A DNA stretch of 64,000 bases from an uncultured bacterium (GTDB taxonomy: Bacteria; Patescibacteriota; Minisyncoccia; Phycocordibacterales; GWA1-40-21), in the NCBI GenBank assembly GCA_963804975.1, contig CAWDSG010000002.1:208991-272990 (forward strand), given 5' to 3'. The notes under the pieces were generated by a model. The model did not search any database. It worked only from the letters and a program-made list of their open reading frames with translations, and was not told the origin of the DNA. Every line of letters begins with the position of its first letter. The first letter of the stretch is position 1. This document shows positions 4,780 to 57,204 of the stretch, in pieces. A program made the translations under genes and the position numbers.

Positions 4780-4855
4780 ATTTTCAGAGCACGGATATTT
4801 TTTTGCTAAAAAATTCCTCGTGCTCGCGCCGACGCGCTCGCAAGTCTCTGAAAAT
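4780..4855. repeat. hairpin-embedded intergenic repeat, copy C (downstream of rplY)
   Basis: 10-bp arms attttcagag/ctctgaaaat; the core ...tttgctaaaaaattcctcgtgctcgcgccgacgcgctcgcaag shares ctcgcgccgacgcgctc with copies A and B. Confidence 0.7.
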
Positions 4856-6514: not shown

Positions 6515-6611
6515 AAGACCATTCAATTTTGAGGTACGCATAATTTCCTGCTGGAAATTTGCTCGATACTCGCGCCGACGCGCTCCGTAGCCCTCAAAAT
6601 TGAATGGTCTT
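6515..6611. repeat. hairpin-embedded intergenic repeat, copy B (between rpmE and prfA)
   Basis: Perfect 20-bp arms (aagaccattcaattttgagg / cctcaaaattgaatggtctt) around the same 75-nt core as copy A, with 1 mismatch. Confidence 0.85.
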
Positions 6612-15593: not shown

Positions 15594-15596
15594 AAA

Positions 15597-15617
15597 CCCC
15601 GAGGTTTAACCTCGGGG
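15597..15617 (+). terminator. intrinsic terminator after gyrB (ccccgaggtttaacctcgggg + T-run)
   Basis: 8-bp GC stem, T-run follows; identical 21-mer at 47259-47279. Confidence 0.8.
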
Positions 15618-15640
15618 TTTTTATCAACAGAGTTTATTTT

Positions 15641-28491: not shown

Positions 28492-30762
28492 ATGTACCTA
28501 AAAGGCATAGAAATTTCCGGTTTTAAATCATTTGGCAAGAAAAGTTCGCTTGATTTCAGCGCGCCTATTTCTGCGATAGTCGGCCCGAACGGCTCCGGCA
28601 AATCAAATGTAGCCGAAGCTTTTTCTTTTGTGCTTGGCGAGCAGTCCATAAAATCTCTGCGTGGGAAAAAGGCTGAAGATCTTATTTTTAACGGCGGAAA
28701 AGAGGCATCTCGTTCAAACCGCGCTTCCGTAAAGCTCATTCTTAACAATGTCCAAAGAATTCTCAATATAGATTTTGACGAAGTTGCCATTGAGCGCGTG
28801 GTCAATCGCGATTCCACAAGCGAATATATTATAAATGGAAGTCCGGTTCGTCTTAAAGATATCATTGAACTATTATCCGGTGCGCATATCGGAGCTTCAG
28901 GACATCAGATAATTTCCCAGGGCGAGGCGGACAAGGTTCTGAACTCAAATATCCGCGAAAGAAGAGACATGATAGAAGACGCTTTAGGCCTTAAAATTTT
29001 TCAATACAAAAAAGAAGAAAGCGAAAGGAAACTTGAAAAGACGGAAGAAAATATAAAACAAGTTGAATCACTCCGAAGAGAAATCGCTCCGCACATCCGT
29101 TTTCTAAAAAAACAGGTGGAGAAAATAGAGAAAACGTTTGAAATGAAAAACAATTTGACTTCCATGTATCACGAATATTTCAGACGCGAGGAAGAATATA
29201 TAAATTATGAGAAAAAAACGATTGCCGGAGAAAAAGAGCCGCTTTTAAAAACAAAAGAAAAACTCGAAAAAGATTTGGCGGCGGCTAGAGAAACTCTCAA
29301 CAAGTCATCCCTGAAAGACAAAAAAAGCGACGAAGTGATGAAGGTTGAAAGCAAGCTAAAGGATGCGAGATTTTCAAAAGATAATCTGACGAGGAGCATC
29401 GGCCGCATTGAAGGGGAAATTTCCTCGCTTCTTAAAATTCTGAAAAAACAAAACGAGGAAAGCGCAAGTGCCCAGAAAAAAACAGTGGAACTGTCACAGG
29501 TGGAAAATATCGCAAAACAGATAAATCTGGAAATAGACGATGCCTTGGAAAGCTCGGACATTTCAAAAATAAAAGAGATTTTCAAATCCATAAAAAATAT
29601 TTTGAAAGATTTTATTGAAAGGCACAAAGAAAGCGAGAGCAAGGAAGCGGCGAGCGAATTGGAAAATGAGATAAAAACGCTTGAAAGCGAGAAAAAGGGC
29701 TATGAAGTGAAAATAAATGAGGCAAACGAACTTGAAACCAAGCTTTTGGAGGAATATTCCTTTCTTAAAAACGAAATAGAAAAGGAAAAGGATTCCAATA
29801 GAGATGCGGAAAAGACAATGTTTCGGATAGTTGCCGAGCAAAATGATATTCGCGGAAAAATATCTGCACTTGAGAGCAGAGAGGCAAGATTGAGGCACGA
29901 CGAGGAAGAATTTCAGAGAGAACTTCAGGAAGGATCTGTTCTTATCGGCGTTTCGGCCTTGCATTATAAGGATTTCCTGCCTACCGGCCAGGCAGGTTGG
30001 CCTATAGAAGATCGTCAGGTGCAAGAAGACAGAAGGCGAGCGTTGGAAAAAATAAAAATCCGCCTTGAGGACGCGGGAATTTCCGGCAGCGATGAAGTCG
30101 TGAAAGAATACAAGGAAACTACAGAAAGAGACAGTTTTTTGGAGCGCGAGCTTGAAGACCTGATAAAGTCATCGCAATCACTGAAAGATCTGATAACGGA
30201 GCTTGGCGAAAAACTTACGACCGAATTCAAGAACGGCGTTGAAAAAATAAACAAGGAGTTCCAAAGATTTTTCATGGCGATGTTCGGCGGAGGCAACGCT
30301 TCGCTTTCTGTCGTAAAAGAAAAAAAGAAGAAAAAATCCGAAACGGAATTGCCGTCCACTTTAGCTGAAGATGAAAGTGAGGACCTTGAGGAAGAAGAGG
30401 AATTGGAAGAGGGGATTGATATTGAAGTTTCTCTGCCGAGGAAAAAAATAAAAGGGCTGATGATGCTCTCCGGAGGTGAGCGGGCGCTTACATCCATCGC
30501 TCTTCTTTTTGCGATTTCTGCAGTAAATCCGCCTCCGTTTATCGTGCTTGATGAGACGGATGCGGCGCTTGATGAGGCCAACTCAAAAAAATACGGCGAT
30601 ATGATTGCCGAGCTTTCAAAATATTCCCAGCTTATTCTCATTACCCACAACAGGGAAACAATGTCCCGCGCCGGAGTTATCTACGGCGTGACAATGGGTT
30701 CTGATGGCGTTTCGCGGCTCCTTTCAATCCAGTTTGAAGAAGCAGTGCAAGTAGCAAAATAG
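28492..30762 (+). CDS. smc: SMC-like chromosome segregation ATPase (short, reduced hinge)
   Basis: 'MYLKGIEISGFKSFG', Walker A GPNGSGKSN, long coiled coil, C-terminal signature 'LSGGERALTSIALLFA' and D-loop 'FIVLDETDAALD'; 756 aa versus ~1150 typical; the in-frame 23-nt element sits in the mid region. Confidence 0.7.
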   Translation: MYLKGIEISGFKSFGKKSSLDFSAPISAIVGPNGSGKSNVAEAFSFVLGEQSIKSLRGKKAEDLIFNGGKEASRSNRASVKLILNNVQRILNIDFDEVAIERVVNRDSTSEYIINGSPVRLKDIIELLSGAHIGASGHQIISQGEADKVLNSNIRERRDMIEDALGLKIFQYKKEESERKLEKTEENIKQVESLRREIAPHIRFLKKQVEKIEKTFEMKNNLTSMYHEYFRREEEYINYEKKTIAGEKEPLLKTKEKLEKDLAAARETLNKSSLKDKKSDEVMKVESKLKDARFSKDNLTRSIGRIEGEISSLLKILKKQNEESASAQKKTVELSQVENIAKQINLEIDDALESSDISKIKEIFKSIKNILKDFIERHKESESKEAASELENEIKTLESEKKGYEVKINEANELETKLLEEYSFLKNEIEKEKDSNRDAEKTMFRIVAEQNDIRGKISALESREARLRHDEEEFQRELQEGSVLIGVSALHYKDFLPTGQAGWPIEDRQVQEDRRRALEKIKIRLEDAGISGSDEVVKEYKETTERDSFLERELEDLIKSSQSLKDLITELGEKLTTEFKNGVEKINKEFQRFFMAMFGGGNASLSVVKEKKKKKSETELPSTLAEDESEDLEEEEELEEGIDIEVSLPRKKIKGLMMLSGGERALTSIALLFAISAVNPPPFIVLDETDAALDEANSKKYGDMIAELSKYSQLILITHNRETMSRAGVIYGVTMGSDGVSRLLSIQFEEAVQVAK
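29974..29996 (+). repeat. in-frame palindromic element (FLPTGQAG) in the smc-like gene
   Basis: ttcctgcctaccggccaggcagg. Confidence 0.9.
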
Positions 30763-31933: not shown

Positions 31934-33946
31934 CTATTCAACTACCTCATAATCCATCTGCTTTCTGTCTAGGTCTGCGCTGACAAGCTTGATTTTTACC
32001 TTTTGTCCTAGCGAAAAAGTTCTTTTTGTTTTTTCGCCGACAATGGCGTATTTTTTGGGATTGAAGACATAAAAATCGTCTCCGAGTGAAGAAAGCTTAA
32101 TCATTCCTTCGGCTCTGGTTTGCGTATCTTCCGCATATATGCCCCATTCGGTGACGCCGGTAATAAGTCCGTCAAAAATTTGCCCGACTTTATCCTGCAT
32201 AAATTCCACCTGCTTGTATTTTCTTGCGTCTCGCTCGGCTTCCGAAGCTTTTATTTCTTGGTCGGTGGAATGTTGGCAAGCTTTCTCATAAAAAGCCAGA
32301 TTTTTTTCCTGAACGGAATTTTTTGAAAGAATGTTTCCGAGAATTCTGTGCACCAAAAGGTCCGGATATCTTCTGATAGGCGAGGTGAAGTGCGCGTAAT
32401 ATTCAAACGCAAGTCCGAAATGGCCGATATTTTTTACCGAATAAATCGCTTTGGCCATTGAGCGCACTGCGGCAGTTTTTACCAAAGCTTCCTCCGCCTT
32501 TCCTTCCACTTGAGCGAAAAGCGCCTGCATATCCTTGCCGGTGATGCTTCCGTTTTTGCCGATGATAAGCTCATGCCCCAGTGCTTTTACAAACACCGAA
32601 AGTTCGGTGATCTTTTCTCTGTCCGGAAAATCGTGTATCCTGTACGGAATGGGGAAAAGTTTCCCGGATTTCTTTTCAAATTTATAAACAAACTCGGCGA
32701 CTTCTTTGTTTGCAAGAAGCATAAATTCCTCCACGAGTTTGTGGGTATCAAGCCATTCTTTTTTGTAAATTCTTATCGGTTTGCCGCTCTGGTCAAGCTC
32801 AAAAGCGATCTCTTCCTGCTCAAAATCAATCGCGCCTTTTTGCCATTTTTCTTTTCTCAATATTTTTGCAATTTTGTTTAGAGTATCCAGTTCCTCAAAG
32901 AATCGCCCGGATTTTTGATTGATAATTTCCTGCGCGCTTTCGTATGAAAATCTTTTATCCGATTTGATGACAGTTCTTCCGAACCATTTTGAATGCACTT
33001 TTGCCCACGCATCCATTTCAAATATCGCGGAAAATGTGAGTTTATCTTCATTTTCATTCAAACTGCAGAGATTGTCGGAAAGCTCAAAGGGAAGCATCGG
33101 TATTGTTCTGTCAGGCAAATACACCGAACATCCTCGATTGTAGGCCTCCTTATCAAGTTCACTTCTTTCTTTTACATAATAAGATACATCGGCAATATGA
33201 ATACCGATTTCAAAATTTCCATTTTGAAGTTTTTTGAAAGATATGGCGTCGTCAAAATCTTTTGCGTTTTTCGGGTCAATGGTAAAAGTGAGTGTGTTTC
33301 GCAAATCTTTTCTATTTGCAATTTCTTCTTTTGGAATATTTCTATTTTGTTCAAAAATTACTTTTGATTCTCTGGAAGCACTCTCGGGAAATTCAATATT
33401 AAAACCTTTATCAATGGCAATAGAATTCATTTCCGTGGAGTTTTCGCCCTTTTTTCCAAGAACGGCTATGATTTCTCCTTCGGCAAAATTTTGCATTGGA
33501 ACCCACTTCGTAATTTTTATTTTTACTTTATCTTCGTCTTTTGCACTGCCTATTTTTTCACGTGGAATTTTTACGGACATCTTTAATTTCTTGTCATCTG
33601 GCGCAAAAGCAATTCCTTTTCCTGCCTGGCCGGCAGGCAGGTCTGAAATTAAAACAGTGCCGACAAAATAACTTTTTGCTCTCTCTATAACTCTCACAAC
33701 TTCTCCGCCCGATAATCCGGATTTGCTTTTTCCGTAGATTTTTACTTCAACTTTGTCTCCGGACATCGCGGAGTTCAAATCTCTCGCGGATATTTCAGCC
33801 TCAACATCTCCTTTTTCAGCCAAAAAATAGGCGATATTGCCTCGTATGGATTTTATCGTGCCGATAAATATTTTACTTTTTCCATTTTGTCCGGATTTTT
33901 CGTGGAGATTTTTTCTATCTCTTCTGAATCTTTTATAGTTTTTCAT
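31934..33946 (-). CDS. rnr: ribonuclease R (RNB family 3'-5' exoribonuclease)
   Basis: N-terminal cold-shock/OB, RNB domain ('HIADVSYYV', 'YLPDRTIPMLP'), C-terminal S1; carries the in-frame 23-nt element near the N-terminus. Confidence 0.85.
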   Translation of the reverse strand: MKNYKRFRRDRKNLHEKSGQNGKSKIFIGTIKSIRGNIAYFLAEKGDVEAEISARDLNSAMSGDKVEVKIYGKSKSGLSGGEVVRVIERAKSYFVGTVLISDLPAGQAGKGIAFAPDDKKLKMSVKIPREKIGSAKDEDKVKIKITKWVPMQNFAEGEIIAVLGKKGENSTEMNSIAIDKGFNIEFPESASRESKVIFEQNRNIPKEEIANRKDLRNTLTFTIDPKNAKDFDDAISFKKLQNGNFEIGIHIADVSYYVKERSELDKEAYNRGCSVYLPDRTIPMLPFELSDNLCSLNENEDKLTFSAIFEMDAWAKVHSKWFGRTVIKSDKRFSYESAQEIINQKSGRFFEELDTLNKIAKILRKEKWQKGAIDFEQEEIAFELDQSGKPIRIYKKEWLDTHKLVEEFMLLANKEVAEFVYKFEKKSGKLFPIPYRIHDFPDREKITELSVFVKALGHELIIGKNGSITGKDMQALFAQVEGKAEEALVKTAAVRSMAKAIYSVKNIGHFGLAFEYYAHFTSPIRRYPDLLVHRILGNILSKNSVQEKNLAFYEKACQHSTDQEIKASEAERDARKYKQVEFMQDKVGQIFDGLITGVTEWGIYAEDTQTRAEGMIKLSSLGDDFYVFNPKKYAIVGEKTKRTFSLGQKVKIKLVSADLDRKQMDYEVVE
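33621..33643 (-). repeat. in-frame palindromic 23-nt element (DLPAGQAG) in rnr
   Basis: The plus strand reads cctgcctggccggcaggcaggtc. Confidence 0.9.
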
Positions 33947-34027: not shown

Positions 34028-34477
34028 ATGTTAATAATAAGATTACAAAGAAAAGGCAGAGTGCACGAACCGACTTTTCGCATAGTTGTCACCGATTCAA
34101 AATTCGGGGTAAAATCCGGCAAACCTGTCGAGGTTATCGGCTCTTATGATCCAAGAAAAGGAAAAGGCAATAACAGCGTAGATGGAGAAAGAGTGAAATA
34201 CTGGATATCAAAAGGAGCACAAGTTTCCGATACGGTATATAATTTTATGATAGACCAGAAAGTTCTTACAGGGAAAAAGATAAATGTACTTCCCAAGAAT
34301 AAAATAATAAACGCAAAGAAAGCCAAAGACCTGCCTACCGGCCAGGCAGGAGCGGAAGCGGCGGCAAAAGCTTCAAAACCGGATTTGACAAGCTCACCGC
34401 AAGAAAAGCCGGCAAAAGAAATGCCAGCTGCAGAAGCAAAAGTAGAACCGGCTCCAGAACCGGCCGTTGTTCAATAA
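34028..34477 (+). CDS. rpsP: 30S ribosomal protein S16 with C-terminal extension
   Basis: 'MLIIRLQRKGRVHEPTFRIVVTDSK' S16 N-terminus; A/K/E-rich tail hosting the in-frame 23-nt element. Confidence 0.85.
   Translation: MLIIRLQRKGRVHEPTFRIVVTDSKFGVKSGKPVEVIGSYDPRKGKGNNSVDGERVKYWISKGAQVSDTVYNFMIDQKVLTGKKINVLPKNKIINAKKAKDLPTGQAGAEAAAKASKPDLTSSPQEKPAKEMPAAEAKVEPAPEPAVVQ
34328..34350 (+). repeat. in-frame palindromic 23-nt element (DLPTGQAG) in the rpsP tail
   Basis: gacctgcctaccggccaggcagg. Confidence 0.9.
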
Positions 34478-44524: not shown

Positions 44525-44638
44525 GCAAATGGCGAGGCGCTTCACCGAAAAAGCACGGATATTTTTCTGCTGAAAAATTCCTCGAGCTTGCGCCGTCGCT
44601 CTCGCTAGGCTTTTTCAATGAAGCGCCTCGCCATTTGC
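44525..44638. repeat. hairpin-embedded intergenic repeat, copy D (between convergent dedA and LOG genes)
   Basis: Perfect 20-bp arms gcaaatggcgaggcgcttca/tgaagcgcctcgccatttgc; the core gcacggatatttttctgctgaaaaattcctcgagcttgcgccgtcgctc is ~85% identical to the core of copy C. Confidence 0.75.
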
Positions 44639-47245: not shown

Positions 47246-47258
47246 ACCTCAAAACAAA

Positions 47259-47279
47259 CCCCGAGGTTTAACCTCGGGG
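47259..47279 (+). terminator. intrinsic terminator after tgt, identical hairpin to 15597-15617
   Basis: ccccgaggtttaacctcgggg. Confidence 0.75.
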
Positions 47280-47355
47280 GAATTGTCAACAATTAAAAAT
47301 AAAAAAACCGGCTTGCAAATGGCGCAGGCCGGTAATTACATAAAAGACGAAAGTT

Positions 47356-48216: not shown

Positions 48217-50265
48217 ATGAGCAAATTCAAGATAAAAGCAGAATATAAGCCGGCGGGAGATCAGCCACAGGCCATAAACGAGCTTGTGGATGGCATAGAA
48301 GCGGGTCTGAATAAGCAGACCCTTTTTGGCGTTACCGGAAGCGGGAAAACTTTCACCATCGCAAATGTCATAGAAAAAACTCAAAAGCCGACGCTTGTCA
48401 TTGCTCACAACAAAACTCTCGCTGCCCAGCTCGCCCAAGAATACAAAGAATTTTTCCCCGACAACGCCGTGCATTATTTCGTTTCGTATTACGACTACTA
48501 TCAGCCGGAGGCCTATATGCCGATCACGGACACTTATATTGAAAAAGAAGCGATGATAAATGAGGAGATCGACCGCCTTCGCCACGCTTCCACGCAGGCA
48601 TTGCTGACAAGAAAGGATGTGATCATTGTTGCCTCGGTTTCCTGCATTTACGGCTTGGGTTCTCCGGAAGATTATGAAAAGGTAAATATCAAACTCAATA
48701 TCGGCGACAAAACCACACGGCAGGATTTGATTAAAAAACTTATAAATGTTCATTTTAAAAGGACAAACTCGGACATTACCGCTGGCTCGTTCCGCGCAAT
48801 CGGCAATGCTATTGAAGTGATGCCGGTAAATGAAAAAATTCTCATTAGAATTGACCTCGCGGATGACCAGATAAAAAATATCTCGCGGATTGATTCGGTT
48901 TCAAGAAAGCTCGTGAAAGACAGTTTGAAATCAGTTTTCATTTTTCCGGCAAAACATTTTATTACGGATAAGGACCAGCAAAAGCGGGCGATAGCGAGCA
49001 TAAAAATTGAGCTTGAAGAGCAATTGAAAAAGCTGAAAAAGGAAGGCAGGCTTCTTGAAGCGGAAAGATTGCGAAGAAGAACCGCGCACGACTTGTCGCT
49101 CATAAGAGAAGTTGGTTATTGCAACGGCATTGAAAATTATTCAAGGCATTTTTCGGGGAAAGTTGCAGGAGAACCGCCGGATACCTTGCTTTCATATTTT
49201 CCAAAAGATTTTCTGACAGTAATAGACGAATCGCATGTCACGGTTTCGCAGATAAGAGGAATGTATGCCGGCGATGCTTCCAGAAAAAAGACACTTATTG
49301 ATTATGGTTTCAGATTGCCGTCTGCAAAAGACAACAGACCGCTCAAGTTTGAAGAATTTGAAAAGAAAGTCGGACAGACGATTTACACTTCCGCTACGCC
49401 GGGAGATTATGAAAGAGAAAATTCCAAGAAGATTGTGGAACAGATTATCAGGCCGACGGGTTTGATAGACCCGGTTATGGATATAAAACCGATTACCGAG
49501 GTAAAAGGTCGTAATAAATCGCAGGTTTATGATTTTATTGATGAAGCGCTGAAAGTTATAAAAAATGGGGGAAGAGTGATAGCAACAACGCTTACAAAAA
49601 AGATGGCGGAAGATTTGAGCGAATATCTGAAAGACCTGCCTACCGGCCAGGCAGGGAAAGGTAAAATCAAAGCGGAATATTTGCACAGCGAAATAAAAAC
49701 GATAGACAGAATAGATATTTTGACGAATTTCCGCAAAGGCAAATTTGATTGTATTGTCGGCGTGAACCTTTTGAGAGAGGGTTTGGATTTGCCGGAAGTG
49801 GAGTTTATCGGAATTCTTGATGCGGACAAGGAAGGATTTTTGCGTTCAGACACTTCGCTGATACAGACCATCGGCAGAGCTGCGAGAAATATTGCAGGCC
49901 GAGTGGTGCTTTATGCAGACCGAATTACCGGCTCAATTGAAAGGGCAGTGGATGAGACAAATAGACGAAGGGAAAAACAGATTGCTTACAACACAAAGCA
50001 TGGCATTACTCCAAAAACGATCGTCAAAAAGATCCACGATATTACCGAGCATATGCGAAGCGACCACGACAGAGCTGTTGCCGAACTTGTCAAAATTGAC
50101 GAGCAAATGGCAGAAAAAAGTCCCGCAAAATTGATTAAGCAAAAAGAAATTCAAATGAACGCCGCTGTGAAAATCCTGGATTTCGAATCCGCCGCGATTT
50201 TAAGGGATGAAATAGCAATATTAAAGAAACGACCAGAAACCAAACCTACAAAAGTAACAATCTAA
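48217..50265 (+). CDS. uvrB: excinuclease ABC subunit B
   Basis: 'GDQPQAINELVDG', Walker A 'GVTGSGKTFT', beta-hairpin, C-terminal UVR domain 'AAILRDEIAILKK'; in-frame 23-nt element at 49633-49655. Confidence 0.95.
   Translation: MSKFKIKAEYKPAGDQPQAINELVDGIEAGLNKQTLFGVTGSGKTFTIANVIEKTQKPTLVIAHNKTLAAQLAQEYKEFFPDNAVHYFVSYYDYYQPEAYMPITDTYIEKEAMINEEIDRLRHASTQALLTRKDVIIVASVSCIYGLGSPEDYEKVNIKLNIGDKTTRQDLIKKLINVHFKRTNSDITAGSFRAIGNAIEVMPVNEKILIRIDLADDQIKNISRIDSVSRKLVKDSLKSVFIFPAKHFITDKDQQKRAIASIKIELEEQLKKLKKEGRLLEAERLRRRTAHDLSLIREVGYCNGIENYSRHFSGKVAGEPPDTLLSYFPKDFLTVIDESHVTVSQIRGMYAGDASRKKTLIDYGFRLPSAKDNRPLKFEEFEKKVGQTIYTSATPGDYERENSKKIVEQIIRPTGLIDPVMDIKPITEVKGRNKSQVYDFIDEALKVIKNGGRVIATTLTKKMAEDLSEYLKDLPTGQAGKGKIKAEYLHSEIKTIDRIDILTNFRKGKFDCIVGVNLLREGLDLPEVEFIGILDADKEGFLRSDTSLIQTIGRAARNIAGRVVLYADRITGSIERAVDETNRRREKQIAYNTKHGITPKTIVKKIHDITEHMRSDHDRAVAELVKIDEQMAEKSPAKLIKQKEIQMNAAVKILDFESAAILRDEIAILKKRPETKPTKVTI
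49633..49655 (+). repeat. in-frame palindromic 23-nt element (DLPTGQAG) in uvrB
   Basis: gacctgcctaccggccaggcagg. Confidence 0.9.
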
Positions 50266-50344
50266 TTGAAGTTGTTTGTACTGTGGATAACTAAGTGTTG
50301 CAAAAAAGGGTATAATAGGCACGTAAAAGGATCTGAATTTTTTC

Positions 50345-50373
50345 TTGCTAATTAAAAATATTTGTGTTATAAT
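50345..50373 (+). promoter_or_regulatory. sigma70-type promoter TTGCTA-17-TATAAT abutting the Panacea gene ATG (leaderless-type)
   Basis: The -10 box ends 6 nt before the ATG at 50380; no SD. Confidence 0.55.
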
Positions 50374-50379
50374 CAAGGC

Positions 50380-50922
50380 ATGAAAATACCCATCACAAAA
50401 CTTAAGGCAATATTGTTGTATTTTTATACTTATACAGATTCACGACTTCTTGGAAAAGTGAAGTTAATGAAACTGTTTTATTTTCTTGATTTTACTCACA
50501 TAAAAAAATATGGTGTTCCTGTAACATTTGATACTTATGTAAAATTGGAACACGGACCAATACCTTCCACAATAAAAAACCTTATCGATACTGCAGATGA
50601 TGATATTGATAACTCATTCTTATCAGATACAATTTCTATTGAAATGTCTGAAGAAAATAAAATGCACCGTATTGTTGGATCAAGAAAATTCAATGACAAA
50701 GATAGCAAATTATTCTCTGAAAATGAATTAAAAATTCTTCAGGAAGTATGTTTACGATTTGGAGATAAAAATACAGGATATATTGAAAAAGCTTCTCATG
50801 AAGAAGCTCCTTGGAAATTATCAAACATGTTTGATAATATTTCTTATTCTTTGGCGGCAAAAGATACTGATAGTTTGATTTCAGAAGAACAAATAAAATT
50901 TTTTGAAGAAATAACAAAATAA
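50380..50922 (+). CDS. Panacea-domain (DUF4065, SocA-like) antitoxin-type protein
   Basis: 'KLMKLFYFLDFTHIKKYGVPVTFDTYVKLEHGPIPSTI' matches the DUF4065/Panacea core. The track uses TTG at 50362; the first ATG is 50380, directly after TTGCTA-17-TATAAT. Confidence 0.65.
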   Translation: MKIPITKLKAILLYFYTYTDSRLLGKVKLMKLFYFLDFTHIKKYGVPVTFDTYVKLEHGPIPSTIKNLIDTADDDIDNSFLSDTISIEMSEENKMHRIVGSRKFNDKDSKLFSENELKILQEVCLRFGDKNTGYIEKASHEEAPWKLSNMFDNISYSLAAKDTDSLISEEQIKFFEEITK

Positions 50923-50926
50923 TTCA

Positions 50927-51316
50927 ATGGATGGAACTCTTGTAACATTTGGAGACGTTTTTAGATACAACGAAGAATTTTATGTTTATTTAGCATTAAA
51001 CGCAGATGCGGGTATATTATATGCTGCAAGAATATTAAATGAAGGTCAAACCAAGGCGTTTGATAAGATGAGTATTAAAAGTAAGATTGACGATGAAAAA
51101 AACTTGACCTTTTGTTATGTTATGCTCAAAACGGAAAATTTTAAAAATAGAGCGGCTCATTTTTATCAAAATGAACATGAAAGTTCAAATATCTATATAG
51201 AAAAATTTTGTTCACTTGATAAAGAAGATTTAATAAAGATAAAAGCCCAGGTAATGGATAGTAAGGCAATATCTCAAAACTTGAAAGATGCAGTCAAAGA
51301 TATTACTCTGTCATAA
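50927..51316 (+). CDS. hypothetical protein, candidate toxin partner of the Panacea gene
   Basis: 129 aa, starts 4 nt after the Panacea stop, no recognisable domain. Confidence 0.35.
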   Translation: MDGTLVTFGDVFRYNEEFYVYLALNADAGILYAARILNEGQTKAFDKMSIKSKIDDEKNLTFCYVMLKTENFKNRAAHFYQNEHESSNIYIEKFCSLDKEDLIKIKAQVMDSKAISQNLKDAVKDITLS

Positions 51317-51365
51317 CTATAAATGGTAAGGTTGAACTTTGCCATTTATAATAATTTTGATTTAT

Positions 51366-51397
51366 TTGCCAAACTTTAAAACTAAGAATAGTATAAT
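51366..51397 (+). promoter_or_regulatory. TTGCCA-17-TAGTAT(AAT) promoter of module 51405
   Basis: Conserved 'atttgccaaa' -35 context. Confidence 0.5.
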
Positions 51398-51404
51398 TTA
51401 ACAT

Positions 51405-51956
51405 ATGTATATATCAACTTGGATCATTATAATTATAGTTATTGTTGGAATATATTTTTACCGTAAATCCAAAAAGCAAAATAAGAGTATATCAGAAAAT
51501 CAATTGCTAACCGCTGATGAAATGTGGGTACGAGCAGAAGTATATATGGAAAGAGTAATGAGAAAAAGTCCTAATATAGAAAAATATCTGCAAGATGAAA
51601 GAGATATGGTAAAAGCTATGGAAAGAGACATGGTACGCCTTCGGGAACGTTTTAAACATGATCCAAAAAAACAACTTGAGATTGCACAAGGTTGGATGGA
51701 TTATTCTCATGCAGTAGAAAGGATAAAATTTTCTAGAGAGTTATTAGATGTTGATATGGAACATAATGCTTATGATTCGCATGATGAACGAACTAAGGAA
51801 GCGTGGATTACTATACCAGAAATTGCAAAACGAGTTGAAAATATACTTGGAAAAGATTCGAGTTCTAAGTTAGTGCATGACAGGCTTTATAGAAATGCAG
51901 AAGCTACAGGAGAGGTTGTTACTGATTTTGTTCTTAAAAATAAAAATAAATCTTAA
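51405..51956 (+). CDS. membrane-anchored hypothetical protein
   Basis: N-terminal TM (WIIIIIVIVGIYFY), charged helical remainder; own TTGCCA-17-TAGTAT promoter abutting the ATG. Confidence 0.3.
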   Translation: MYISTWIIIIIVIVGIYFYRKSKKQNKSISENQLLTADEMWVRAEVYMERVMRKSPNIEKYLQDERDMVKAMERDMVRLRERFKHDPKKQLEIAQGWMDYSHAVERIKFSRELLDVDMEHNAYDSHDERTKEAWITIPEIAKRVENILGKDSSSKLVHDRLYRNAEATGEVVTDFVLKNKNKS

Positions 51957-52006
51957 GAAATTTTGATATCATTGTTGATTTCAGCAATTTTAATTAATTT
52001 CCCAAT

Positions 52007-52042
52007 CTCCAAAACCAAAATAAAAGAAAATCCCACGAAAAC
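52007..52042 (+). repeat. 36-nt direct repeat, left copy (ctccaaaaccaaaataaaagaaaatcccacgaaaac)
   Basis: About 33 of 36 identical to 52674-52709; flanks the two-gene module 52133-52614. Confidence 0.75.
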
Positions 52043-52058
52043 CGTGCGGTTTTTTTAT

Positions 52059-52087
52059 TTGCCAAAAATACAAACTCGGCGTAGTAT
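52059..52087 (+). promoter_or_regulatory. TTGCCA-17-TAGTAT promoter of module 52133
   Basis: tttatttgccaaaaatacaaactcggcgtagtat. Confidence 0.5.
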
Positions 52088-52132
52088 TTAAGATAGAAGT
52101 AAATTGACTAAATCCGATTCAAGGAGATAGCG

Positions 52133-52381
52133 ATGAAAAAAACATTTAAGAGATTATGGTTGCATGTTTTATTAATCGGCAAGACGTTGAACACTAGTGG
52201 AATCATTTGTTTCTTCAGGCTAAGACACAAGTTTGATCCGATTGAAGTTGAAGCTCATTATTTGCATGCCAAATGTTATCTATGCAAAAAAAAGCTTTAT
52301 TACGCCAAATCTTCCAACGAGTATAAAAACTTGTTGGAAGAAAATTCGCGATTCTTGAAAACGAAAGGAATGGAATCATGA
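52133..52381 (+). CDS. hypothetical small protein (module gene 1)
   Basis: 82 aa; AAGGAG RBS; its stop overlaps the next gene's start (ATGA). Confidence 0.3.
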   Translation: MKKTFKRLWLHVLLIGKTLNTSGIICFFRLRHKFDPIEVEAHYLHAKCYLCKKKLYYAKSSNEYKNLLEENSRFLKTKGMES

Positions 52382-52614
52382 AAAAAGTTGAATTGACATT
52401 TATGGTCGTCCCCGAGTTTTTGAAAAGCCATTGTTTCATCAAAGATCCGGTCAAGATCAAGATCATTGATCCAGGAGCCATTTTTCTTACAGGCATTCTC
52501 GGCGAAAGCGGAAGAAAAATGGTGAAGGCGGGCATTCCATTTTATTTCAAACGGAAGCTTGCCGAACATTTGATCAATAAAGGAATCGCGGTACGAATAC
52601 CAAGCAGGAAATAA
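52378..52614 (+). CDS. hypothetical small protein (module gene 2)
   Basis: 78 aa, translationally coupled to the upstream gene. Confidence 0.3.
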   Translation: MKKVELTFMVVPEFLKSHCFIKDPVKIKIIDPGAIFLTGILGESGRKMVKAGIPFYFKRKLAEHLINKGIAVRIPSRK

Positions 52615-52673
52615 TATCGCATTTCCAACAAAAGCACACGACCTTCTGGTACGGTGCTTTTTTATTTGCTAAC

Positions 52674-52709
52674 CTCCAAAACCAAAATAAACGAAAACCC
52701 CACAAAAAC
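52674..52709 (+). repeat. 36-nt direct repeat, right copy (ctccaaaaccaaaataaacgaaaaccccacaaaaac)
   Basis: See the left copy. Confidence 0.75.
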
Positions 52710-52710
52710 T

Positions 52711-52932
52711 CTAAGGTCTTCGTGGGGATTTTTTTCTTCTTGGCTTGGTTCCCAAACAGCACAAACCAGTCCTTATCTTTTTTGAATGAATCGGATGTTC
52801 TGTTTCAAATCCGCATTCAGGACACGGATGGCCGCGATAAGGTTTGAATGTTCGCGCCTTTACAGATGCGGCATGACCAGTAGACCCATTTAAATTAAAA
52901 AGCAATTCTTCTTTTATAGTTTTAAGTTTCAT
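52711..52932 (-). CDS. hypothetical small protein with zinc-ribbon-like CPECG motif
   Basis: 73 aa; AAAGGAG RBS on the minus strand; 'HPCPECGFETEHPIH...CC'. Confidence 0.25.
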   Translation of the reverse strand: MKLKTIKEELLFNLNGSTGHAASVKARTFKPYRGHPCPECGFETEHPIHSKKIRTGLCCLGTKPRRKKSPRRP

Positions 52933-53000
52933 GGCAAACTCCTTTCGTTTTCAATCTATTTTCAGTATAAACAAATAATAATATTTGTCTAGATTTAAAT

Positions 53001-53028
53001 TTGCCAAAATCCAAAATAGGTGTAATAT
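53001..53028 (+). promoter_or_regulatory. TTGCCA-16-TAATAT promoter of module 53109
   Basis: aaatttgccaaaatccaaaataggtgtaatat. Confidence 0.45.
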
Positions 53029-53108
53029 CCAATCAGAAGCAAAAATCGATAAACCGGAGAAGTTGAGTCATCAGCGCAATCTAAAATTCTTTTGAAAAGG
53101 AGAAAACA

Positions 53109-53771
53109 GTGAAAAAATTGTTCGCCGTCGTCGTTTTGTTTTTAGTCGTTGTTTCAAATGTTTCGGCAGGAAGCAGTGAATTTAAAGTAGGAATCGGACC
53201 GGAAATAAACTGGACGAACGTTCCTATCACCTCTGATCCGACAATTGGAAACGTGGTTTTGGGAAATCCTGCGATAGGGGAGAATATTTTTTTACAGTAC
53301 AGGCCGAAATATCTTTTCGGAACAATCGCCGTGAAAGCCGAAGCGAGCATGTTCGGAAAACAGGACTTTGCCTCGGAGAACCTGAGCGTGTCGGGAAGCG
53401 AAACGACAAGCTCATGTGGCTTTATTTTGAAAGTTTATCCTCCGGTCAAAGGACATATTGAACCGTATGGCGGAATCGGCGCCGATTATGTCAGCGTTAT
53501 AGGCGGATATTCTCGCCCGACAACCCAGACGATAAATATTTACGGCCAATCGGTTGATATTCCGACGATGACCACGACAGCGGTTTGTCTCGGATCATGG
53601 ATACCCAAAGCAGAGGTTGGCGCGGATATATCCATTATCGATGATCATTTCTCAATATATATAGAAGGATTTGATATGTTTTTAAATGAAATGAAAGGCG
53701 GCGAAGCCGATAATCTTGCAAAGAAAGCCAGCAGTATCGGATTATCGGTAGGAGGAGCCATATCGTTTTAA
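53109..53771 (+). CDS. secreted beta-rich protein resembling an 8-strand outer-membrane beta-barrel (OmpW/OMP_b-brl-like)
   Basis: GTG start after AGGAG; signal peptide ...VSA/GS; alternating hydrophobic dyads; C-terminal '...GLSVGGAISF' ending in Phe, as in OMP beta-signal. Confidence 0.4.
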   Translation: MKKLFAVVVLFLVVVSNVSAGSSEFKVGIGPEINWTNVPITSDPTIGNVVLGNPAIGENIFLQYRPKYLFGTIAVKAEASMFGKQDFASENLSVSGSETTSSCGFILKVYPPVKGHIEPYGGIGADYVSVIGGYSRPTTQTINIYGQSVDIPTMTTTAVCLGSWIPKAEVGADISIIDDHFSIYIEGFDMFLNEMKGGEADNLAKKASSIGLSVGGAISF

Positions 53772-53837
53772 TTAAAAAGATATATTAAAATTAAAAACCC
53801 GTTTCAAAGAAAAGAAACGGGTTTTTTATTGCAAAAT

Positions 53838-53886
53838 TTGCCAAAACTCTTATTTTCTTGACTTTACTAAATATTAATGATACTAT
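53838..53886 (+). promoter_or_regulatory. promoter region of module 53925 (TTGCCA context; TTGACT-17-TACTAT)
   Basis: aaatttgccaaaactcttattttcttgactttactaaatattaatgatactat. Confidence 0.4.
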
Positions 53887-53924
53887 TGCTTTAGAGTAAA
53901 ACATCCGCCACGAGGGAGGATCAC

Positions 53925-54371
53925 ATGTTATCTGATAAATCAAATAAGATTGATTTGTCTGAGGAAATTATGTGTGCATTGATATTTGCAAGAAGCATAA
54001 TACGGAAATTTTTTGGCCGAAACATTGTCTTTAAACAAGCGACTATTTATCAAGAAAACAAAGAGGTTGATAGGTATGAAGTCGAAATCAAAACGGTAAT
54101 AAAAACTGAAGATAGCTGCAACCCATTTCTCTTTGGAGTTGTATTTGGTTTTACGCTTGCCGGCACGAATGGCTTTTCGCCTGAACCAAATGGCGAAGTA
54201 GCAATGCGGTTGGTGTACGGTATGGGGAAAAAGGATGAAGACCTTTCTTTCGTTTATAATCAAGGAGGGTTTAATTTCTCCGACAACACACGAAAACTTT
54301 TGAATGAACTACGCGCAAAGATAGGTTTACCAGAAATAGATTTGCCGGAATTCATTCAAAACCCATCTTGA
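53925..54371 (+). CDS. hypothetical protein
   Basis: 148 aa; GGGAGG RBS; own promoter and terminator. Confidence 0.3.
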   Translation: MLSDKSNKIDLSEEIMCALIFARSIIRKFFGRNIVFKQATIYQENKEVDRYEVEIKTVIKTEDSCNPFLFGVVFGFTLAGTNGFSPEPNGEVAMRLVYGMGKKDEDLSFVYNQGGFNFSDNTRKLLNELRAKIGLPEIDLPEFIQNPS

Positions 54372-54434
54372 TAAATATCGACAACGCCCACGAAAAGCCC
54401 AGTGCTTCTCGCGGGCTTTTTGTTTGTAAAATAT

Positions 54435-54463
54435 TTGCCAAATTTATAAACTAAGAGTAATAT
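54435..54463 (+). promoter_or_regulatory. TTGCCA-17-TAATAT promoter of uvrA
   Basis: atatttgccaaatttataaactaagagtaatat. Confidence 0.5.
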
Positions 54464-54513
54464 GCTCGTACATAACCCTATGGGGCAAACCCGAGGGTAA
54501 TTTGGCTTTATAT

Positions 54514-57204
54514 ATGAAAACAACATTTAACGAAAAGTCACCAAAAATCATTGTAAAAGGGGCGAGAACTCACAATCTTAAGAATATTACTGTTGAGATG
54601 CCTCGCAATAAGATGATCGCCATTACAGGGATTTCCGGCTCAGGGAAGTCGTCTTTTGCATTTGACACTATTTTTGCCGAAGGCCAGAGGCGATATGTTG
54701 AATCGCTTTCTTCTTATGCAAGGCAATTTTTGCATCAGATGCAGAAGCCGGATGTGGACGAAATAGTCGGGCTTTCGCCTGCAATTTCAATAGACCAAAA
54801 ATCCCGTTCAAACAATCCTCGTTCAACCGTGGCGACTATCACGGAAATTTACGATTATTTGAGAATTTTATATGCAAGAATCGGCAAACCGCACTGCCTT
54901 GTCTGCGGACGCGAAATTAAAAAACTTTCAAAAGAGGAAATTTTGGAAACAATTATTCATACTGTTACGCATATCAAATCTCCGCAGAAATCCAAAGAAG
55001 TGCTCGGGGTGAAAGTAACAAGCGACCCCGGTGAAGTAAAAAACGCACTACTTCACGGGGCAAGCAAGATCAGAATTTTTTCTCCGGTTGTTGTCGGCAG
55101 AAAAGGGGAGTACTACCAGCTTCTTTACGATTTGATAGAAAAGGGCTATGAATACGTAAAAATAGACGGCGAGCTTAAAAAGCTCCGCAACCAGATAATT
55201 CTCGCCAAAAACAAAAAGCACGATATTGATGTGCTTGTTGATGAATTTTACATAAGCGAGTTTATTTTGACAAAAACTGGCACAAGCAAGGCAGTTGAAG
55301 CGGATAGGCAAAGATTTGAAAATGTAAAAACCCGACTTTCAGACGCGGTGGAAAAAGCCATTGAGGAATCAAAAGGGCTTTTGAAAATTGAAACGCCTGA
55401 AGACCTGCCTACCGGCCAGGCAGGAACCAAAATGATCTCCGTTAAATTTATGTGCCCTTACGATGGCTATTCATATCCAGAAATAGAACCGCGGCTTTTT
55501 TCATTCAATTCGCCATATGGCGCATGTCTAACTTGCCACGGCCTCGGCACAAAAGATTTTTGGACTGACGAACCTTGCGAAACGTGTCATGGCAAGAGAT
55601 TGCGAGAAGAAGCGCTGCATGTACTTATTGGAGATATAAATATCGTGGAATATACCGCTAAATCAATCGGAGATGCGAAAAATTTTATGGAAAATCTGAA
55701 ATTGACCGAGCTTGAACAGGAAATTTCCCGGGTAATTCTGAAAGAAATTGACTCACGGCTCCAATTTATGATGGATGTCGGCATTGAATATCTTTCGCTT
55801 GATAGACGGGCAAATACTCTTTCAAACGGCGAAGCGCAAAGAATCCGCCTTGCTTCGCAGCTCGGCTCCGGCCTTGTCGGCGCTCTTTATGTGCTGGATG
55901 AACCGACAATCGGCTTGCATCAGAGAGACAACGACAAGCTTATAAAAACATTGATAAATCTGCGCGATCTGGGAAATACGATTCTTGTGGTTGAACACGA
56001 CGAAGATACGATGTTTGCTTCGGATTATATCGTTGATATCGGTCCCGGTGCCGGAGTGCACGGAGGAAAAGTCGTTGTTTCCGGATATATGGACGAGCTT
56101 TTGACCGCGAAAGAAAATAAATCCGGTTCAATCACGCTTGATTATCTTCGCGGTGATATGAAAATTGAAATGCCGAAAAAAAGACGCGATCAAGACAAGG
56201 GAAAAATAAAAGTGCGAGGCGGAAAAATTTTCAATATAAAAAATATGAATGTTGAAGTGCCGCTTGGAAAATTTGTGACTATCACGGGAGTGTCCGGCTC
56301 GGGAAAGTCATCTCTGGTATATGAGATTTTGCACAAAAACCTGCGGGCACGGCTTGAAAGAAAATTTCGCAACGCAAATACTTACAATTGCGAGTCATTT
56401 GCCGGCTCGGAATATGTTTCAAGGACGATTATGATAGACCAGTCGCCGATAGGAAGGACTCCTCGTTCAAATCCGGCAACTTATATCGGTGCGTGGACTT
56501 TTATCCGCGATATGTTTGCTATGACGGCGATGGCGCGAGAAAGAGGCTGGGGAGCAAACAGATTTTCATTTAACGTAAAAGGCGGAAGATGCGAAGCATG
56601 CCAAGGAAACGGAACGATTGAAGTGGAAATGCACTTTTTGCCGACGATTTATGTGCCGTGCGACATTTGCCATGGAAAAAGATTTACCAAGGAGACATTG
56701 GAAGTGAAATACAAAGGGAAAAATGTCCATCAAGTGCTTGAAATGACTGCAGAGGAAGCTTTGGAATTTTTTGCCGATTTGCCGGCGGTTTACGACAGGT
56801 TGAAATGCGTGAATGAAGTCGGACTTGGATATTTGAAACTCGGGCAATCTGCCACGACGCTTTCCGGCGGAGAAGCGCAGAGAGTGAAAATCGCTTCGGA
56901 ACTTTACAGGCCGGATTTGCACAAGACAATTTATTTTTTGGACGAGCCGACAATCGGGCTTCATTACGAAGATGTAAAAAAACTTATTGAAATTTTACAG
57001 AAGCTTGTTGATAACGGAAATACTGTCGTAGTTATTGAGCACAATATGGATCTGATAAAAAATTCCGATTATGTGATAGATATCGGGCCGGAAGGCGGAG
57101 ACAGGGGCGGGGAAATTGTCGCCAAAGGGACGCCGGAGAGTGTAGCGGAAAATGAAAAGAGTTATACTGGTAAATATTTGAAGAGAATTTTGAAGAGAAA
57201 ATAG
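54514..57204 (+). CDS. uvrA: excinuclease ABC subunit A
   Basis: '[14 protein letters not shown]', two ABC modules (GISGSGKSS..., GVSGSGKSS...), zinc fingers; the track start TTG at 54502, and the ATG at 54514 aligns with the canonical UvrA N-terminus; in-frame 23-nt element at 55402-55424. Confidence 0.95.
55402..55424 (+). repeat. in-frame palindromic 23-nt element (DLPTGQAG) in uvrA
   Basis: gacctgcctaccggccaggcagg. Confidence 0.9.

Follow-up and report, generated by a model that had tools for sequence, protein, structure and literature searches.

Phage morons are reportedly stand-alone extra genes inserted between phage genes, and a classical moron brings its own promoter. Bidirectional intrinsic terminators are said to occur at the ends of convergent genes, for which one shared terminator is the usual arrangement. 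A related preprint is 10.1101/2022.10.23.513370. Intervals between conserved core genes have been described as hot spots of horizontal gene transfer (HGT) (Oliveira et al., 2017, PMC5635113). We compare here with these systems, and with type II toxin-antitoxin pairs and the direct repeats of mobile elements, a 4.2-kb interval between uvrB and uvrA, located in a 64-kb stretch of DNA from a Patescibacteria (Parcubacteria-type) genome; the whole of this stretch is called the window. The interval is the home of two small genes, ORF A and ORF B, and its genes are as follows.

48217-50265: uvrB, the left core gene of the interval.
Next to uvrB: an antitoxin gene whose product has a Panacea/SocA domain (Pfam E 2e-20), and its partner of 129 aa.
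51405-51956, plus strand: D183, encoding a 183-aa membrane-anchored protein.
52133-52381, plus strand: ORF A, 82 aa, overlapping the start of ORF B.
52378-52614, plus strand: ORF B, 78 aa, of a family of ~75 aa with the motif DPEAIFLTGILGESGRKMVKAGIPFYF.
52711-52932, minus strand: gene C, 73 aa, with a CPxC motif, a strong Shine-Dalgarno (SD) sequence and a promoter-like site at 52991-52964.
After gene C, plus strand: G220, encoding a 220-aa protein with a signal peptide.
After G220, plus strand: the gene for a 148-aa protein, the last island gene before uvrA.
54502-57204: uvrA, the right core gene of the interval.

The uvrB-uvrA gap is a gene-turnover hot spot in this genome. In three genomes, namely that of the window and those of two relatives (L100 and L102), conserved core flanks enclose differing gene content; the island is ~4.2 kb long in the window and 2.7 kb in each of L100 and L102, and gene A is the sole island gene common to all three. 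As in HGT hot spots, two core genes, uvrB and uvrA, border a short stretch in which relatives differ completely in content save for one anchor gene, some of the cargo has a foreign composition, and a pair of toxin-antitoxin type is included. Unlike those hot spots, the island contains, in the three genomes compared, a conserved gene, A, that has cargo to its left and right, it has no integrase or tRNA, and promoter and terminator spacers have been duplicated inside it. D183 and C are AT-rich at third codon positions (GC3 of 0.20 and 0.28, respectively) and compositionally foreign, and A and B (0.41 and 0.47) look native, the core genes having a GC3 of 0.425 +/- 0.047. When C and D183 were looked up as exact proteins, the only contigs returned were from the source sample. 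The best relatives of UvrB among GTDB representative genomes belong to Parcubacteria/Patescibacteria with identities of 70% or less, and none of these carries any of the island proteins. No recombinase or transposase gene or domain was detected in 50200-54600.

ORF A has three relatives, at 45-54% identity, in an exhaustive phmmer search. A profile search starting from the resulting four-member family gave no further members, a word-indexed search returned the self match alone, no relative was present in the viral contigs of IMG/VR, and searches against Pfam, NCBIfam, PADLOC, PHROGs and PDB sequences gave no significant match. Five residues, C26, H32, H42, C48 and C51, are invariant in the four members and a hydrophobic N-terminal helix lies ahead of the Cys/His residues; judging from this pattern, ORF A is probably a small zinc-binding protein. 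Both relatives with readable surroundings (P0048 in L100; P0049 in L102 and L103) are located between uvrB and uvrA, in genomes whose UvrB and UvrA are ~80-92% identical to those of the window. This location is the decisive evidence on which ORF A appears to be a resident gene of the uvrB-uvrA gap, conserved in this lineage. At the DNA level, 52046-52269 of the window aligns with 3916-4140 of L100 at 70% identity, a range covering the promoter, the leader and the first 137 nt of A, and the homology of A to its relatives stops around residue 70 (~52342). A dN/dS of 0.10 between L100 and L102, obtained with saturated synonymous sites, points to purifying selection on the gene; its codon-usage score is weak or ambiguous. 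An orphan or spurious ORF was also considered for A, and was ruled out by the three phmmer relatives, the conserved Cys/His residues and the conserved synteny. What follows A differs among the relatives: in L100 an 85-aa basic ORF, and in L102 a terminator of its own, beyond which lies a 104-aa gene.

ORF B is a member of a far more widely found family, with 46 homologue clusters at 56-85% identity in which the motif DPEAIFLTGILGESGRKMVKAGIPFYF is strongly conserved. Its AlphaFold model is a confident small alpha/beta domain (pLDDT 89.8), for which no significant structural relative was found. No significant match to B was obtained in Pfam, NCBIfam, PADLOC or PDB sequences, and its sole PHROGs match is a marginal one, to the function-unknown family phrog_2616 (E 0.0012); the initial annotation, which recognised no domain in either protein, was right in this respect. 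The surroundings of B are diverse. In one Patescibacteria genome it has a 4-nt overlap with a VTT/DedA gene upstream and pilM downstream, in a genome related to that of the window it lies downstream of an ABC-F ATPase gene, in phage-like contigs it is found among small ORFs with N6_N4 methylase, radical SAM, Thg1, SufBD or cREC genes, and on two short contigs it stands alone; 4-nt overlaps with unrelated neighbors are thus formed elsewhere too. Eight viral contigs of IMG/VR (17-365 kb) carry B and none of them carries a relative of A; annotated GenBank phages gave no match. Between the window and these other loci, DNA homology is limited to 52374-52601, i.e., the coding sequence of B, with unrelated flanks, and no direct repeats surround B in 10 other loci. 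B resembles phage morons in that it is short and self-contained, occurs in phage-like or viral contigs as well as in hosts, shares only its coding sequence with homologous loci and has its own terminator; unlike them, it lacks a promoter of its own and would use that of a resident gene. On these comparisons B appears to be an independent, phage-associated cargo gene that has been captured behind A.

The junction of the two genes is an ATGA overlap of 4 nt, and both reading frames, of 82 and 78 aa, are confirmed as the initial annotation gave them. The homology of A ends at ~52342 and that of B starts at 52374, which argues that A existed first and that B became attached at its variable 3' end. 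No promoter- or terminator-like site was found on the plus strand between A and B. Because B has no promoter of its own, A and B would be co-transcribed from the promoter of A, and their translation may be coupled through ATGA. Relatives of A occur without B, and B occurs among unrelated neighbors; A-B is therefore not a conserved pair, and its two members have probably come together by accident, not by evolution as a two-component system.

The noncoding features that surround these genes, with promoters and terminators as predicted from sequence, are as follows.

51994-52059, no strand assigned: U1, the left terminator unit, with a degenerate -35-like box ATTTCCCAAT, an A-rich tract, a hairpin and T7.
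52032-52037 and 52043-52049: arms of the U1 hairpin, CCCACG and CGTGCGG, followed by T7 at 52050-52056.
52057-52132, plus strand: P_A, promoter and leader of ORF A, with box ATTTGCCAAA (52057-52066), -35 TTGCCA (52059-52064), -10 TAGTAT (52082-52087) at a spacing of 17, and SD AAGGAG (52121-52126).
52355-52369, plus strand: 15-nt leader and ribosome-binding segment of B, TTGAAAACGAAAGGA.
52630-52663, plus strand: B's own intrinsic terminator, AAAAGCAC...GTGCTTTT and then a T-run.
52661-52738, no strand assigned: U2, the right terminator unit, with box ATTTGCTAAC, an A-rich tract, a hairpin and T7.
52698-52703 and 52722-52727: arms of the U2 hairpin, CCCCAC and GTGGGG, extended to 12 pairs, with T7 at 52729-52735.
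52940-52954, minus strand: 15-nt leader of C, an inverted copy of the leader of B.
52999-53117, plus strand: P_G220, with box ATTTGCCAAA (52999-53008), -10 TAATAT, leader, SD and the first G220 codons.

The module formed by A and B lies between two copies of a 36-mer, CTCCAAAACCAAAATAAAAGAAAATCCCACGAAAAC, which occupies 52007-52042 and recurs with 3 mismatches (33/36) at 52674-52709, exactly where the initial annotation had placed it. The true repeat is longer. A gapped alignment extends it to 51994-52059 versus 52661-52738, i.e., to units of 66 and 78 nt with ~57/66 identical positions (~86%), and takes in the A-tract, both hairpin arms and T7; the first 24 nt of the 36-mer are the A-rich tract, and the loop of U2 carries an 11-nt insertion relative to U1. 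The two U copies are 667 nt apart. They are the only two in the whole 64-kb window, in which no further copy was found with up to 11/36 mismatches and none was expected from 100 shuffles. GTDB representatives and IMG/VR gave no match to the 36-mer, and its two matches in JGI metagenomes are one unrelated membrane-protein coding sequence, hit by chance. By these searches the 36-mer is not a generic motif, the counter-possibility that the initial annotation had named being a generic spacer sequence; the comparison of related genomes with and without the module that it had proposed finds no true match to the 36-mer in any of these collections, the nearest UvrB among the GTDB representatives being at 70%. 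As for other identities of the 36-mer, an RNA gene was rejected, no Rfam match being close to threshold, and so was a coding repeat SKTKI[K/N]ENPTKT in two ~42-aa ORFs, which have poor codon scores; two of the three differences would be synonymous in that reading, three differences being too few for a test.

Both hairpins were selected by a terminator scan. U1 (-11.9 kcal/mol, z -3.0 versus shuffled sequence) lies 75 nt past the stop codon of D183 and abuts P_A, and it is likely the terminator of D183. For U2, folding on the minus strand gives -28.8 kcal/mol with z -4.2, its z-scores ranging from -4.2 to -4.5. U2 follows B's own terminator (-15.1 kcal/mol, z -4.1) and overlaps the end of C: the stop codon of C (52711-52713) is inside the hairpin loop of U2, and its last 7 codons plus stop are encoded by the T-run, a hairpin arm and the loop of U2. 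Extension of the homology past the hairpin into gene C was tried and is not significant. On the minus strand U2 may terminate C, and on the plus strand it may serve as a backup to the terminator of B. With a GC-rich hairpin, a T-run, an upstream A-tract and a location at gene ends, as judged from sequence and folding, U1 and U2 look like two paralogous copies of a predicted bidirectional intrinsic terminator. Similarly to described bidirectional terminators, U2 lies between convergent genes, B and C, and its GC hairpin stands between an A-tract and a T-tract; unlike them, the terminator exists here in two complete copies that form a diverged direct repeat, and its activity is a prediction. At the position of U1, L100 has another hairpin and L102 has no hairpin.

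Both copies were said in the initial annotation to share the same 'tttatttgcY' plus T-run context. The context is present at both, and this part stands; it lies, however, on opposite sides, following copy 1 on its downstream side (52050-52066) but preceding copy 2 (52658-52672), and is a generic junction in which a terminator T-run is followed by the promoter -35 box ATTTGCCAAA. Five exact copies of the box lie on the plus strand within 51364-54442, ahead of D183, A, G220, the 148-aa gene and uvrA, i.e., each plus-strand gene from 51405 to uvrA, and the other 60 kb hold a single one; four of the five boxes have a TA[G/A]TAT -10 element at 16-17 nt. The junction of a T-run with TTTGCCAA is found also in the islands of L100 and L102, including the orthologous A and uvrA promoters, and the A homologues of these two relatives have a promoter and leader orthologous to P_A.

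A second copy of this promoter is located on the other side of gene C, which sits between U2 and P_G220. Judged by sequence, P_G220 is a paralogue of P_A, and it stands to U2 in the same colinear order as P_A to U1: 51994-52143 is colinear with 52661-52734 plus 52999-53117, with 120/144 identical positions and a score of 104 versus 29 +/- 6.5 for shuffled sequences, and this alignment passes over 264 nt that hold gene C. The U part and the P part do not differ in mismatch rate (Fisher p 0.16), and a three-way alignment also supports the promoter part of the duplication. In blastn, 53006-53044 matches P_A of L100 (3935-3973) at 85% with E 1.6e-6, and P_G220 is about as similar to P_A of L100 and L102 as to the window's own P_A; a relative, rather than a local duplication, could for this reason be the source of the promoter copy.

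The explanation that we consider best, and hold to be probable though with real reservation, is a mosaic operon in which resident A and captured cargo B are co-transcribed and are insulated by paralogous terminators stemming from a local duplication of the spacer. According to this explanation, A with its conserved promoter and ribosome-binding site would have resided between uvrB and uvrA, and B, a phage-associated stand-alone gene, would have been captured directly behind it so as to overlap the stop codon of A. B would then be read from P_A, its translation being coupled via ATGA. U1 would end the D183 transcript ahead of P_A, and U2 would end that of convergent C and back up the terminator of B, leaving the A-B transcript insulated. 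Most likely, a local duplication copied a unit of ~150 nt that runs from U through P_A and the leader into the start of A; the second copy would now drive G220, with gene C lying between its two parts, U and P. The fallback of the initial annotation, that the spacer was recently duplicated, is favored by the gapped repeat alignment and the colinear promoter copy, and it alone survives of the readings given there. We infer the order and direction of these rearrangements, because no genome is close enough to show the state before duplication (the nearest UvrB in GTDB is at 70%).

The module was proposed in the initial annotation to be a discrete two-gene unit delimited by the repeats and acquired by insertion. 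In a specific form of this proposal, a unit of P_A, A, B and terminator would have been inserted whole into a single bidirectional terminator of convergent D183 and C, duplicating a target of ~70 nt in an att-like or homology-mediated manner. The repeats do abut such a unit exactly, the T-run of U1 running into the -35 box of P_A and U2 starting at the T-run of B's terminator; convergent genes usually share one terminator; and D183 and C are compositionally foreign and A and B native-looking, so that AT-rich D183 and C beside native-looking A and B also fit an insertion of A-B into one shared terminator. Against it, two relatives with neither the repeat nor B have A, promoter included, at the corresponding place between uvrB and uvrA, and orthology with L100 already starts at 52046, within the 3' arm and T-run of U1. 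Given this orthology of A and its promoter in relatives, acquired DNA does not begin at the left repeat. The unit of 600 bp has no recombinase, transposase or terminal inverted repeats, B has no flanking repeats in the 10 other loci, and the colinear run of the repeat past C into a second promoter copy is not predicted by simple target duplication. Like att sites or IS target-site duplications, the repeats are direct and flank a short segment. Unlike them, they are 66-78 nt long at ~86% identity with no recombinase and no terminal inverted repeats at the ends of the unit, they do not lie at the borders between acquired and resident DNA, the left copy being outside ancestral, not acquired, DNA, and their homology continues into the second promoter copy. 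Whole-unit insertion, the main rival to the duplication model, is unlikely on this balance, and the 36-mers are most likely neither attachment sites nor target duplications from an insertion of A-B.

Also rather unlikely is that U is a small dispersed terminator element of REP/MITE type, with more copies outside the 64-kb window, two of which flank A-B by chance. Other families of short intergenic repeats in the window, with 86-99% identity, and a 21-nt palindrome in 7 copies indicate that small repeats spread in this genome. However, U is present in two copies in 64 kb even when 11/36 mismatches are allowed (64 kb of the 606-kb contig having been read), has no terminal inverted repeats, was not found in the collections searched, and is colinear with the promoter duplication, which points to a segmental event.

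One feature is left unexplained by the duplication model. The 15-nt TTGAAAACGAAAGGA forms a perfect inverted repeat whose two occurrences in the window each stand just upstream of a start codon, those of B and C. Gene C, the minus-strand 73-aa ORF that the initial annotation had noted after the right repeat, is present with its CPxC motif; searches including Pfam, PADLOC, PHROGs, NCBIfam and PDB sequences gave no homologue of it, and neither IMG/VR nor annotated GenBank phages gave a match. It can be supposed from the 15-mers that the acquired unit was the convergent pair of B and C (52355-52954), moved as one block or as an invertible segment bounded by these inverted repeats, and that U2 came along. 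The exactness of the 15-mer and its position immediately before each start codon are in favor of this, as are the facts that the leader of B is shared with no B homologue locus and that the B-C block is missing from L100 and L102. We regard it nevertheless as very unlikely: the ends of the block have neither a target duplication nor a nearby recombinase, relatives of C adjoin B nowhere, the GC3 values are unequal (0.47 for B versus 0.28 for C), and 15 A-rich bases containing a Shine-Dalgarno sequence are weak evidence for such a block.

A type II toxin-antitoxin system or other obligate two-component pair, as the initial annotation read the two genes, is extremely improbable: A and B are small, co-directional and joined by a 4-nt ATGA overlap under one promoter, the island also holds the Panacea-domain antitoxin pair and is hence a place where such systems land, and three different small genes after A in three genomes loosely recall a conserved partner with swappable effectors, but unlike toxin-antitoxin genes the two show no conserved pairing, each being found without the other and A-B adjacency at no other examined place (B stands alone or overlaps unrelated genes, and relatives of A have unrelated genes downstream, in L102 beyond a terminator), which is the very observation named in that annotation as speaking against its reading; furthermore, A and B match no toxin, antitoxin or defence family, and neither a toxin domain or fold nor an antitoxin with a DNA-binding or neutralising domain was seen for them.

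Other repeated sequences were observed in the window outside the A-B locus. An intergenic repeat of ~77 nt is present at 866-942 and 6526-6602, another of 60 nt at 4788-4847 and 44552-44611, and a terminator hairpin is repeated at 15594 and 47256. The 21-nt palindrome CCTGCCT[A/G]CCGGCCAGGCAGG is inserted in 7 of the window's long ORFs, uvrB and uvrA among them, always in a constant phase and in the sense orientation, in which it reads LP[T/A]GQAG; the orthologues in L102 lack exactly these 7 residues. This in-frame palindrome is the most unusual feature that we have seen, and it lies outside the A-B locus.

The architecture of the A-B locus is an ordinary by-product of gene turnover and overturns nothing in current understanding. 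For annotation, it gives the lesson that a pair of small genes with an ATGA junction and flanking direct repeats should be taken in this case for neither a toxin-antitoxin system nor a self-contained mobile cassette. A bolder idea, which we consider a long shot, is that A with its ATTTGCCAAA promoter is a fixed 'landing pad' behind which small foreign genes are repeatedly captured, or that A is a promiscuous partner, regulator- or antitoxin-like, for swappable effectors, possibly linked to the DNA-damage response. If the landing pad were true, the captures would be B in the window, the 85-aa basic protein in L100 and the 104-aa protein in L102, and they would have occurred by recombination at reiterated promoter/terminator spacers, integrase-free and in a manner analogous to integrons. 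For the Patescibacteria lineage, the present analysis shows a hot spot between uvrB and uvrA that is built from reiterated terminator and promoter spacers, and documents in this gap a conserved, uncharacterised Cys/His mini-protein, A, together with a widespread phage-associated family of ~75 aa, that of B, which is likewise uncharacterised and has a confident, unmatched predicted fold. These two protein families and the 21-nt palindromic insertion could be the parts worth more work.

Every plus-strand gene from position 51405 to uvrA, within the island of gene turnover between uvrB and uvrA, is preceded by a box, ATTTGCCAAA, whose core TTTGNCAAA is an odd palindrome. In its usual setting a terminator T-run lies 5' of the box and TA[G/A]TAT follows 16–17 nt 3' of it. 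The box is also found in the islands of two related Patescibacteria contigs, L100 and L102, and it is nearly missing from the remaining 60 kb of the window; it could be the strong promoter of the lineage or a shared operator.

Positions of the box
Window 51364, plus strand, exact box
Window 52057, plus strand, exact box
Window 52999, plus strand, exact box
Window 53836, plus strand, exact box
Window 54433, plus strand, exact box
L100 2678, box in relative
L100 3928, box in relative
L100 4630, box in relative
L102 5928, box in relative
L102 6732, box in relative
L102 7145, box in relative

The leaders of the island genes show further likenesses. The signal peptide of the 220-aa gene that follows the second promoter copy, MKKLFAVVVLFLVVVSNVSAGSS (window 53109-53180), is similar to the N-terminus of the L100 homologue of ORF A, MKKLFIAFLLYVVTPISVFSNRSG (L100 4001-4070). 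Because the promoter and leader of the 220-aa gene are paralogous to those of ORF A, this gene may have captured the 5' end of ORF A, and the N-terminal likeness could alternatively reflect ordinary signal-peptide composition. We also observed a perfect 15-nt inverted repeat, TTGAAAACGAAAGGA, at 52355-52369 (plus strand) and 52940-52954 (minus strand), whose copies form the ribosome-binding leaders of ORF B, which overlaps the end of ORF A, and of the convergent gene C; no third copy is present anywhere in the window, and none of the models of the locus accounts for this repeat.

The island's real toxin-antitoxin candidate is another pair, in which the second gene begins 4 nt after the first.

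50362-50922, Panacea/SocA-domain antitoxin gene (Pfam E 2e-20)
50927-51316, 129-aa ORF (weak PADLOC PDC-M08A match)

With a GC3 of 0.18-0.23, where core genes have 0.425, this pair is strongly AT-rich and hence probably a recent acquisition.

A 21-nt GC-rich palindrome with 7-bp arms, CCTGCCT[A/G]CCGGCCAGGCAGG, was observed seven times in the window against an expectation of 0.

19093-19113, minus strand, palindrome copy
20222-20242, minus strand, palindrome copy
29976-29996, plus strand, palindrome copy
33621-33641, minus strand, palindrome copy
34330-34350, plus strand, palindrome copy
49635-49655, plus strand, palindrome copy in uvrB
55404-55424, plus strand, palindrome copy in uvrA

Each of the seven copies is situated within a long ORF of 173-1095 codons. 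All have the sense orientation and an identical codon phase and encode the peptide LP[T/A]GQAG, and 'GA' directly precedes six of them, so that a Glu or Asp codon is split. UvrB and UvrA of L102 lack exactly the seven palindrome-encoded residues while the surrounding sequence is conserved, and the palindrome was not found in L100 or L102. It looks like an in-frame insertion element that has spread recently; the palindromic elements of Rickettsia are a loose parallel, though far longer. There are exact matches in 10 IMG/VR contigs as well, where the contexts are mostly GC-rich and may be unrelated.

The window has other families of short intergenic repeats, and none of the three below had an Rfam match.

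866-942 and 6526-6602, ~77-nt intergenic repeat, 76/77 identical, with inverted termini ATTTTGAGG/CCCTCAAAAT
4788-4847 and 44552-44611, 60-nt intergenic repeat, 87% identical, sharing the core CTCGCGCCGNCGCGCTC with the ~77-nt repeat
15594-15629 and 47256-47291, repeated terminator hairpin, 89% identical

Concerning sequence integrity, two Logan contigs from the source sample ERR10755942 match the window without a difference and abut within ORF A, L099 reaching as far as 52216 and L001 beginning at 52219. This junction is probably an assembly break; it could also be a sign of strain variation at the locus. The ORF B homologue of the related contig L014 (5001-5228) contains an in-frame stop (GES*RKM), which reflects either decay of this copy or an error in the long-read assembly; uvrB and uvrA are frameshifted in L100, a contig of the same study.

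The ORF A family has four members among 1.8 billion representatives, in which C26, H32, H42, C48 and C51 are invariant.

Window 52133-52381, ORF A
L100 4001-4330, ORF A homologue
L102 6001-6225, ORF A homologue

ORF A is the sole gene that three related Patescibacteria genomes have in common between uvrB and uvrA, with variable cargo on either side of it, and the family may be tied to nucleotide excision repair or its regulation.
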